From positions 992,001 through 1,056,000 of the forward strand of contig OZ237753.1 of NCBI GenBank assembly GCA_965178125.1: 64,000 nt of DNA. The letters are read 5' to 3'. This DNA comes from Bilabrum cf. latius (taxonomy: Eukaryota). Shown here one piece after another: positions 60,201-63,119 of this stretch (positions are counted from its first letter, which is position 1; each line of letters begins with the position of its first letter). The notes beneath the pieces were generated by a model. That model did no database searches and was not told the DNA's origin. It was given only the letters and a program-made list of their open reading frames with translations. A program made the translations under genes and the position numbers.

Positions 60201-63119
60201 ACCTTGCGCGATACGGTGGGCAACATGTGCATGCAGGAGCTGCCAAGCCACAACGCAGCGCGCATCATGGCAACATGTGGGTCGAAGGGCAGTGTTCTGA
60301 ATATCTGCCAGATGACGGCTTGCGTGGGGCAGCAGAACGTAGGGGGCAAGCGCATTCCCGAGGGATTCGTGAGCCGCACCCTCCCCATTTTTAGAACAGG
60401 GGCCAAGGAGCCTGCGGCCAAAGGGTTCGTTGCGAATAGCTTCCGGTCCGGTCTGAATGCCACCGAGTTTTTCTTCCATACGATGGGTGGCCGGGAGGGG
60501 CTCGTGGATACCGCGGTGAAGACGGCCGAGACGGGGTACATGCAGCGCCGGATGGTCAAGGCGCTGGAGGACCTGTCTGTGCAGTACGACAACACCGTGC
60601 GGACGTCGAATGGAGACGTGGTGCAGACAATCTACGGGGATGACTCCCTTGATCCGGGCCAGATGGAGAGCAATGGCAGGCCGGTGCACCTGGACCGGCT
60701 GTGGACGAACGTGCAGAATGACATGCCGTGCCCTGAGGAGCCACCTTTGGGCAAGACGGAGATCGGGGAGGTGGTGGCCGCGGAGATGAAGTCGCACGTG
60801 TGGAAACCTTTGAACACGGACAGTTAGGGCAGCCGCGGGGCGCTAGCTGGTGGTCCCAAGTTCTGCGAAGACGTCAAAGAGTTCATGGCAGGTCTGGCAG
60901 ACAGGGTGGGGGACACGCGGAGCCAGCTCCGGCTCCTTGAGAGCCCGTCTCAGCGAAATAGTGCCCTGGCAGCGCATGCAGCAGCCGCCAAACTTGACTA
61001 GAACAAGCGATCGGGAGCACCAGGGCTGGGAACAAGCGTGGGCAGCTCCGGTGAGGACCTGTGGCTGAAGCACTTCTCCCGCATCCCTCCGCCCGAGCGC
61101 TTCCGCATGGGCTGCGAGCTCGCGCTGCAGGACATCGACGGCCAGGGTTTGGGGGCTGCCCGTTCGTCTGCCGCTGCGGCTGCTGCTCCTTCCCAGCGTG
61201 GCATGGAGGCCGAGGAGTACCCCGATGAGTCGCAAGCCACGCTGGTGGTTGGTTCGGACGACTGGTTGCTGGCTGAGGCCCACCAGCGCAAGCTCATCCG
61301 AGTGACGCACACCTAGATACGCGTGTTCCTGGCGCAGGCGCTCGCTCGGTACGAGCGCGCGCAAGTGCAGCCCGGCGAGGCTGTGGGGGCGGTCGGTGCG
61401 CACAGCCTGGGCGAGCCTGCCACGCAGATGACCCTCAAGACGTTCCATTTCGCAGGCGTGGCCTCAATGAACGTGACGCTGGGCGTGCCCCGCATCAAGG
61501 AGATCATGAACGCCACCAAGGTCATCTCCACCCCCATCATCGAGGCGCCGCTGGTCAACTCGTAGTCGGAGAGTGCGGCGCGCATCGTGAAGGGTCGAAT
61601 CGAGAAAACAGAGCTGGGGGACATCGCCAAGTCGGTCACGGAGCAGCACGTCGGTGGGCAGTCATCGCTGGTGATCCGGCTCGACCTTGCCACTATCAGC
61701 AGCCTCATGCTGGAGATATCCGCGCAAGATGTCGCCGACGCCATAGTGGCGTCCAAGATCAAGCCCAAGATCACTGCAAATGACATATCGGTGCAGGGCA
61801 GCGCCATTGTCGTCACGCCCCCGGAACGAGATGGGCCCAGCAGGCGCCGCCTCGGCGCCATCAGCACGGCGAGCGGGCTGCTCCCGCACAGCGAGCGTAT
61901 GGAGGCCTGGCTGGGCGGTAATCAGTACTATGCCCTGCAGGACCTCAAGCAGGAGCTCCCCAAGGTGATCGTGCGCGGCATTTCTTCGGTGAATCGAGCC
62001 GTGATCTCACGGGACGACAAGGACGAGAGCAAGTTCAAGCTGCTGGTGGAGGGCATCTCGCTGCTGCAGGTCATGGGCACGCCGGGCGTGGATGGCCTCA
62101 GGACCATATCGAACCACATCATCGAGGTCAAGAACACGCTGGGGATCGAGGCGGCCCGGGGGCAGATCATGAAGGAACTGAACCGGACGTACGGGTCGTA
62201 CGGCATCGGCATCGACCCGCGGCACCTCATGCTGCTGGCTGACGTGATGACCTACCGCGCCGAAGTCCTGGGCATCACGAGGTTCGGGATCGCACGTATG
62301 AAGGAGAGCGTGCTGATGCTGGCCTCCTTCGAGAAGACCCCCGACCACCTTTTCGACGCCGCGCTGCACTCCAAGGTGGATCGCATCGCGGGTGTCTCCG
62401 AGTGCATCGTCACCGGCAGGCCCTGCAACCTAGGCACGGGGGCATTCCGAATCCAGATGATGCCATCCGAACTGCCAACTGCCAAACAGCAGCGCAAGGC
62501 GAGGGCGCAGCGCAAGCGAGACCGGTCGCAGATGGAGGCTACCCTCGGCGCCCAGCCGTGGAGGACCCCGGCGCCCCCTGCAGACGTGCAGATCTCAAGG
62601 GTGTTGCCCGCGCCCCGGCCGCTCTTGCTCCAGCCAACTCGCGACTCGGCCCCGCTCGCCAGCGTGCGGGCGCAGCGGGAGCGGCTGCGCTCCGTGAGCA
62701 CAGACCTGAGCGGCCGAGGGAGTCTCCGGGGGGTGTCGGCTGGGTCCGTGGAGGCAGTTCCGCTGCCGCTCTCCAGGAGAGATTCGGTGGTCTCTGCTGG
62801 ATTCGGGGACCTGCCTACCGGACATGGGGGCAGCCCCCGACTTGGGTCGGCCTCGGATGCGGCTGCCAGTGGAGCCAGAGTCAGGGCGGGGGCGGGGGCG
62901 GGGGCGGGGGCGGGTGAGGGTGGTGCAGCAGGAGGATCGTCTGAGGCGGAGGGAGGGAGGTCGCTGCGGCCCAGCAGACCGCGCCGGTCTCGGTCTGCTT
63001 CGCTGGCGGACTTTCCTCCTGTAAGCGAAGCCGCCACCCGAGAAGCAGCGGGCGCGCCTGGCAAGGACAAGGCCCTACTCAGCGCGTTCCCATCGGTTGC
63101 AGAGGAAGAGGACAGGTGA
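57277..63119 (+). CDS. POLR3A: DNA-directed RNA polymerase III largest subunit (RPC1)
   Basis: Exon 1 57277-57336; intron 57337-57443; exon 2 57444-63119. Motifs [32 protein letters not shown], catalytic [75 protein letters not shown] (Pol III-type). Seven TAGs (57477, 57540, 59775, 60825, 60999, 61314, 61563); TGA 63117. Confidence 0.96.
62884..62914 (+). repeat. (GCGGGG)n hexamer repeat encoding Ala-Gly
   Basis: About five tandem G-run units in the RPC1 C-terminal extension; G-quadruplex-prone pattern. Confidence 0.65.

Follow-up and report, generated by a model that had tools for sequence, protein, structure and literature searches.

Evidence that UAG is a minor glutamine codon in the nuclear genome of Bilabrum cf. 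latius, a relative of Cafeteria

The window analysed here is a stretch of 64,000 nucleotides of Bilabrum cf. latius (G000:C19:992001-1056000) from an assembly of 48.6 Mb in 111 contigs, and all coordinates below are those of the window unless a contig is named. Near its end it carries a gene of two exons that runs from ATG 57277 to TGA 63117-63119 and encodes a protein of 1,911 aa. This protein was identified as RPC1 based on the presence of all five Rpb1 Pfam domains and on its best match, which is RPC1 and not RPB1 or RPA1. The features of the gene, including seven in-frame TAG codons, are the following (homologue columns are from 120 RPC1 sequences).

57277-57336, + strand: RPC1 coding exon 1, from the inferred ATG, which was read from the sequence (X3 and X7 contigs join 57336 to 57444)
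57337-57443, + strand: RPC1 intron of 107 nt, GT..AG, skipped by the X3 and X7 contigs
57444-63119, + strand: RPC1 coding exon 2, with seven in-frame TAG and a TGA end (Pfam Rpb1 domains 1-5; best matches named RPC1)
57477-57479, + strand: TAG 1, residue 32; column with E 44, Q 18 and N 13 of 120, not diagnostic
57540-57542, + strand: TAG 2, residue 53; D-dominated column, yet Q in the closest homologue (P0002)
58920-58949, + strand: NADFDGD motif, intact in the translation, which we take to be the catalytic motif
59775-59777, + strand: TAG 3, in a variable or inserted region
60825-60827, + strand: TAG 4, in a variable region; retained in a subtelomeric fragment copy
60999-61001, + strand: TAG 5, in a lineage-specific insertion
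61314-61316, + strand: TAG 6; opposite human Q1010, in a column with 50 Q among 120 homologues
61395-61469, + strand: near-invariant segment 3' of TAG 6, most columns identical in 119-120 of 120 homologues, presumably the trigger-loop region
61563-61565, + strand: TAG 7, in a variable column (D/N/T/E/K/Q)

Over the whole RPC1 gene, 7 TAG, 65 CAG and 6 CAA codons were counted, with no internal TAA or TGA. In exon 2 the coding frame contains the 7 TAG and neither TAA nor TGA, while the other two forward frames hold 49 and 28 TGA, which indicates that the TAG-only pattern is not due to chance. Transcript-like evidence was obtained from runs X3 and X7, which, like X9, were treated as cDNA-like because their contigs skip introns, none of the listed runs being recorded as RNA; the assembly may itself have been made from X3, or X3 may derive from the same strain, and the contigs are consensus sequences from which minority variants are dropped. 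A spliced contig of X3 (record 10) matches 57207-57336 joined to 57444-62870 with no differences and no gaps, so that all seven TAGs are unchanged in it, and a contig of another study (X7, record 17) matches 60411-61421 equally well and covers three of them. Two long low-complexity insertions (59230-59720 and 60830-61290) are present in the spliced contig and are therefore coding.

The proposal that the window copy is a pseudogene or contains sequencing errors, with an intact copy elsewhere, has a negligible probability, since the second RPC1 protein match on the same contig, 100% identical, is only a 781-bp fragment (L053, G000:C19:1081283-1082063; 99.2% identical to window 60127-60906) that lies between TTAGGG-type repeats close to the contig end and itself keeps the TAG at 60825, the two other of the four genome matches besides the window gene are far more distant paralogues, and the RPC1 TAGs recur in independent runs, with in-frame TAGs also found in many other gene families. 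The fragment has the appearance of a piece captured near the telomere or created by the assembly, and it was rejected as an intact alternative. A second intact RPC1, raised as a possible objection in the initial annotation, was thus not encountered in the genome, and the window copy is present as a spliced contig. Removal of the TAGs from the RNA by editing or as small introns is highly improbable: consensus contigs would lose minority variants, but the intron-free contig carries the seven TAGs without a difference or a gap and the second study agrees over three of them. Neither introns nor editing were seen at the RPC1 TAGs in these consensus contigs, and at that level UAG is unedited in mRNA-like sequence.

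The initial annotation had concerned the TAG at 61314, one of the seven, and had placed it on a Gln that is found in homologs. The translation and the position of the codon were borne out on the sequence, as was the gapless alignment to human POLR3A, for which the RPC1 chain of PDB 7a6h was used: the TAG lies opposite human Q1010 (counted from the printed alignment), the yeast residue being S. That Gln occupies this column in homologs holds only as a plurality. Although Q is the commonest residue (50 of 120, 42%), it is followed by M 16, S 16, A 11, T 8, L 7 and 12 others, so that the column, which is Q in 22 of 24 hand-picked rows (closest matches, named stramenopiles and a few others), is weak evidence taken alone. 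Moreover, Q is the commonest residue in only one of the seven TAG columns, which counts against a Gln assignment. A stop at 61314 would, as had been stated, remove the trigger loop; however, the first TAG would already truncate the protein after 31 residues.

When TAG is read as a sense codon, the window is joined into long open reading frames; the other genes and open reading frames detected in it are the following.

3-2105, - strand: presumed protein kinase with cyclic-nucleotide binding, incomplete at the window edge, its kinase domain containing one TAG
5700-7425, + strand: intron-containing gene with a TGA end, presumably MAP-kinase-like
7763-51427, strand not assigned: seven additional ORFs of 1,090-3,197 codons, each interrupted unless TAG is sense, with kinesin, ankyrin and DENN domains among them
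28425-36662, - strand: ORF of 2,700 codons with no Pfam match, in which a unit of 19 residues forms a long tandem array at 34190-36180
51598-54891, - strand: glycine decarboxylase P protein, with a TGA end (Pfam match, codon count)
55462-57110, - strand: RRM gene with two introns and 10 in-frame TAG in the spliced frame (contig joints)

The seven further long ORFs contain 64 TAG in total and end in TGA (5) or TAA (2). Beyond the window, every stop found within the Pfam matches of dyneins (28 matches) and proteasome subunits (19 matches) was TAG, and among the stops in 65 matches of the Ras family only 1 TAA and 2 TGA were not TAG. A detailed analysis was performed on 10 of the about 20 dynein genes, with homologue columns built from 120 sequences and a separate set of 150 dyneins left out of the column counts. 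These genes, 47,135 codons altogether, contain 137 TAG, 1,820 CAG and 215 CAA, and neither TAA nor TGA occurs inside them; TAG thus represents 6% of the dynein Gln codons (137/2,172) and none of the 40 in the glycine decarboxylase.

Conserved dynein columns allowed the residue to be assigned. Among columns conserved at 90% or more, 17 of the 24 TAG sites correspond to Q, the remainder being E (4), R (2) and N (1), while the controls gave Q for 237 of 304 CAG and 25 of 30 CAA. The mean Q share of the columns was 0.274 both for TAG (98 columns) and for CAG (1,374), and a log-odds call over the 98 TAG columns scored Q at +58.1 and the next residue, E, at -60.8; by the same procedure sense codons were called correctly in 61 of 61 cases. 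In small GTPases the switch II Gln is encoded by TAG in five uninterrupted motifs (L064, L067, L076, L079 and L082) and in three more located after an intron. A test based on neighbouring Gln codons counted against this reading, as CAG/CAA beside TAG (5/142 vs a background of 4.7%) were not enriched, and inclusion of TAG itself (11/142 vs 5.1%) gave no clear support. An additional source of evidence is a metagenomic relative (L123, L124 and L127; 77-89% identity, 52-55% GC), which at 16 TAG sites of this organism covered by L123 and L127 has CAG (10), CAA (4), TAG (1) and CAT (1), while its own 29 TAGs face CAG 13, CAA 2, TAG 1, GAA 3 and 10 other codons. Altogether, TAG is found at Gln positions across the genome, is kept in spliced contigs, is exchanged with CAG/CAA in the relative and was not found at any of the gene ends sampled, and we consider it very probable that the nuclear code has UAG as a minor Gln codon with UAA and UGA as stops. 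The presence of a TAG-encoded Gln in an essential gene, implied by the initial annotation, is in this way supported by genome-wide evidence to which it had no access.

It is very improbable that UAG specifies another residue or a mixture, be it Glu, Tyr or pyrrolysine. Glu-consensus columns are commoner for TAG (4/24) than for CAG/CAA (12/334; Fisher p = 0.016), an excess at conserved dynein columns that would favour Glu and that is partly explained by two Glu-consensus sites of L099 that are CAA and CAG in the relative. Against this, Gln is ahead of Glu by about 119 log units, Tyr is outside the top four residues, and the relative has no GAA/GAG and no TAC/TAT at the 16 TAG sites mentioned above. 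With regard to Tyr, the single tRNA gene with a CUA anticodon, described below, has a Tyr-like acceptor stem with C1-G72, but it has G73 and C34 in place of the A73 and G34 that are listed, together with C1-G72 and U35, as eukaryotic Tyr identity elements in the part of PMC9976931 consulted. ARAGORN calls this gene Pyl from its anticodon; its standard cloverleaf differs from the tRNA-Pyl fold and TAG occurs at Gln columns, and a pyrrolysine system was rejected on these two grounds.

The genome contains one eRF1, the other matches being pelota-like. According to the predicted exon joints it comprises 438 aa and ends in TAA, and it holds two in-frame TAGs, both in the N domain, so that full-length eRF1 would presumably be produced only if UAG is read. 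The first lies in a column with Q for 116 of 118 homologues and the second at L69, in a column that is L in 117 of 118; a Q at this position was also found in a plant-type chain. Position 69 and T32 have been tied to the reading of a third-base G (PMC5304391, part consulted). Five further substitutions in this stop-reading domain, G29A, N30D, I35V, S60V and K130H, were each present in none of the 111-118 aligned homologues, while GTS, E55, NIKS, S70 and YxCxxxF are retained. The retention of these motifs and the Q of the plant-type chain count against the proposed reading of UAG. Based on this sequence comparison, the substitutions may be the cause of a loss of UAG termination: the altered eRF1 would no longer terminate well at UAG, and its own TAGs would lock the code change in.

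Gene ends were examined in a sample of conserved families, which is not a census. A cysteine prenylation motif closes 20 of 30 GTPase loci, with TGA as the stop in 16 and TAA in 4, no such motif being obtained for the remaining 10. All 10 dyneins end where their homologues do, 8 in TGA and 2 in TAA. TAG ends were absent from 37 histone ends of 7 types (mostly from one multi-copy cluster) and from 15 proteasome loci. TGA is the commonest stop in the sample, and TAA and TGA, which act as stops at the sampled gene ends, are absent inside the dynein genes. A code in which both UAG and UAA specify Gln (NCBI table 6) was rejected, since TAA does not occur within the dyneins and ends genes. A dual UAG, read as Gln inside genes and as a stop at some true gene ends, is quite improbable. 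Context-dependent stop/sense codes are known in ciliates according to the consulted part of PMC11687900, the core motifs of eRF1 are retained and the sample of gene ends is small and biased to conserved families, all of which would be compatible with a dual function. On the other hand, no TAG end occurs in the four families sampled (20 GTPases with a prenylation motif, 10 dyneins, 7 types of histone end, 15 proteasome loci), TAG is found 20 codons upstream of a dynein stop and near the CaaX end in L087, and the absence of internal TAA/TGA from the 47,135 dynein codons indicates that dedicated stops remain. Within the sampled gene ends, no context dependence was found.

A tRNA gene with a CUA anticodon was detected at G000:C23:907607-907679. 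It folds into a full cloverleaf and scored 69.8 bits with Rfam, the second best of 48 tRNA matches in an incomplete inventory (63 of 780 candidates scored), and this high score suggests that the gene is maintained. No further CUA tRNA and no UUA tRNA, with or without an intron, was found in three pattern scans of the genome, whose matches were mostly due to chance (ARAGORN was applied to 30 of 36 plus 4 and to 30 of 110 plus 16), and the window itself contains no tRNA genes. The tRNA(CUA) would be charged with Gln by GlnRS, the gene of which was located in the genome, and would pair with UAG and not with UAA because of the C:A mismatch at the wobble position.

It could be argued that UAG specifies Gln but that most of its decoding is due to the near-cognate tRNA-Gln(CUG), with a CUA gene that is minor or silent, since only one CUA gene was found vs two copies of tRNA-Gln(CUG), and no suppressor tRNA is reported as detected in Hartmannula sinica or Trochilia petrani in the part of PMC11687900 consulted. 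This appears quite unlikely in view of the full cloverleaf and the rank of the CUA gene and of the use of TAG at 6% of dynein Gln codons and in essential genes. The tRNA-Gln(CUG) and tRNA-Gln(UUG) genes of this genome (L038, L039, L010) are unlike each other, with 8 of 21 positions shared, and the tRNA-Gln(CUG) gene has one unpaired position in its acceptor stem.

Concerning the origin of the tRNA(CUA), comparison with 24 other nuclear tRNAs of the organism over the acceptor, anticodon and T stems showed that the closest is tRNA-Tyr(GUA), with 29 of 39 positions shared; the next best shares 20, and none of 265 pairs of other isotypes reaches such a value. Its acceptor stem, with C1-G72, has 6 of 7 pairs as in tRNA-Tyr, a level attained in 1 of 265 null pairs, and its variable loop has 5 nt. 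Conversely, the D stem is identical to that of tRNA-Gln(UUG) and position 73 is G. When the D arm and the anticodon arm were used as a pattern with the anticodon left free, all 23 matches were tRNA-Gln(UUG) on viral contigs, while the acceptor pattern retrieved many isotypes and no Tyr among 80 tRNAs in 80 listed loci of 120 matches, in an imperfect control, as the tRNAs retrieved were largely of phage. A pure tRNA-Tyr origin, at first favoured on the 29/39 positions, was thereby weakened, because the D and anticodon arms retrieve only tRNA-Gln and the acceptor pattern is not Tyr-specific. From these likenesses, the tRNA(CUA) may be a Gln-type tRNA whose Tyr-like acceptor stem arose by chance or as part of a mosaic. 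Bacterial Gln identity elements include G73 and U35, and no validated elements are listed for eukaryotic Gln in the consulted part of PMC9976931. As a tentative and rather doubtful extension, the gene might be a mosaic of a tRNA-Gln D/anticodon arm and an acceptor stem from the organism's own tRNA-Tyr, in which G73 turned it from TyrRS; UAG would then have been captured via a Tyr-suppressor state, or would still leak into it, and the two TAGs of the eRF1 N domain would constitute a feedback by which the supply of release factor depends on UAG being read.

Over positions 8-26, the tRNA-Gln(UUG) genes most similar to the tRNA(CUA) (L296-L318) are on viral contigs, several of which carry a giant-virus bin label, and based on this similarity the body of the tRNA may have a viral source. 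Independently, a tRNA-Pro(UGG) and a multi-copy tRNA-Met(CAU) have nearly the same acceptor stem and D arm (L036, L022; G000:C3:1096678-1097064, C5:282086), and two of them are 250 bp apart; this likeness may be a sign that tRNAs of the genome have been recruited from one amino acid to another.

The top named dynein match is Cafeteria roenbergensis (65%). In a tree of 65 rows, built from one gene by a quick method and rooted at the midpoint, the organism and L127 (SH-aLRT 100) are sister to the Cafeteria clade (98), and this group is placed apart from oomycetes and ochrophytes. No in-frame stops were found in 4,179 aligned codons of L130, from the Cafeteria clade, nor in about 4,000 aligned codons each of L116, L117 and L118, which lie outside it, while in the paralogous loci L168 and L170 the in-frame stops are TAG only. 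Since the relative has TAG and the Cafeteria clade lacks it, the change maps to the branch common to the organism and L127, and it would have arisen after the split from Cafeteria. TAG accounts for 26% of the Gln codons in the relative (29/111), whose GC content is lower, vs 6% in the dyneins of this organism. The window has a GC content of 53-72% by 2-kb block and the genome is GC-rich, suggesting that AT pressure is an unlikely driver of the change. A database protein of 98% identity (P0375) ends one residue before a TAG of the organism, and gene calling with the standard code would fragment many genes in this genome.

Only a few lineages are known to have a nuclear code in which UAG and UAA are separated, and why both codons nearly always change together is a question on which this organism bears. 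The UAG-only reassignments listed in the consulted part of PMC11687900 are those of a rhizarian (Leu), Iotanema (Gln) and Scotinosphaera (Ser), as well as Protocruzia tuzeti, H. sinica and T. petrani (Gln) and three ciliate MAGs (Leu), with no mention of stramenopiles in that part. A stramenopile nuclear case was not found in the literature searched, which did not extend to supplements and most subscription papers; in the parts consulted of PMC11412368, PMC6723347, PMC6972860, PMC12152300, PMC12574857, PMC12153298, PMC13768787, PMC10089648 and PMC9161772, stramenopile code changes are mitochondrial only or absent. With high confidence, the code described here is genuine and represents an independent occurrence of a rare code already known elsewhere, now in a further branch of eukaryotes and with the gene of the decoding tRNA in hand, although the producers of the assembly may already be aware of it.

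The nearest named relatives, C. roenbergensis and C. burkhardae, have a dynein orthologue recorded as a full-length protein, and the DNA of a close member of their clade has no in-frame TAG, unlike that of this organism. In Cafeteria mitochondria UGA is read as Trp (PMC6972860, part consulted), and a 38.4-kb contig of the present assembly (G000:C111), an AT-rich tRNA cluster with a tRNA(UCA), is consistent with a mitochondrial genome using UGA as Trp, as reported for Cafeteria and Cafileria. The code of Tetrahymena, Oxytricha and others, in which UAR is Gln, resembles the present one in that TAG is also Gln; the comparison set included control loci with such a code, in which both TAA and TAG are in frame, whereas here TAA is a stop and no tRNA(UUA) was found. 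UAG is also split from UAA, with another residue, in the rhizarian exLh and phyllopharyngean MAGs (Leu) and in Scotinosphaera (Ser), and position 69 of eRF1 is changed in exLh too (L69A), being encoded by TAG (Gln) here. As far as the consulted parts of PMC11687900 and PMC10089648 describe them, H. sinica, T. petrani and P. tuzeti read UAG alone as Gln, as in this organism; they are ciliates, and a suppressor tRNA was undetected in the first two, while a tRNA(CUA) gene is present here. The present genome further differs from them in its high GC content and in the predominance of TGA among the sampled stops. The code type corresponds to that of Iotanema spirale (UAG-only Gln, the same table as NCBI 15), a fornicate unrelated to this organism in which UAG is likewise Gln, UAA is a stop and the N domain of eRF1 is changed (Panek et al., 2017; PMC5304391, part consulted). 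In Iotanema the eRF1 change is T32G, within GTS, and the existence of a tRNA(CUA) was no more than a prediction, while in this organism the gene was identified. GTS is intact here, with changes on its flank (G29A, N30D) or in TASNIKS (S60V), and this dissimilarity names new candidate residues for the discrimination between UAG and UAA. For the present case a near-complete genome is available with the genes for tRNA(CUA), eRF1 and GlnRS, spliced contigs come from at least two studies, and the code is shared by a relative but absent from the sister clade, a combination that the earlier Gln cases compared do not offer.
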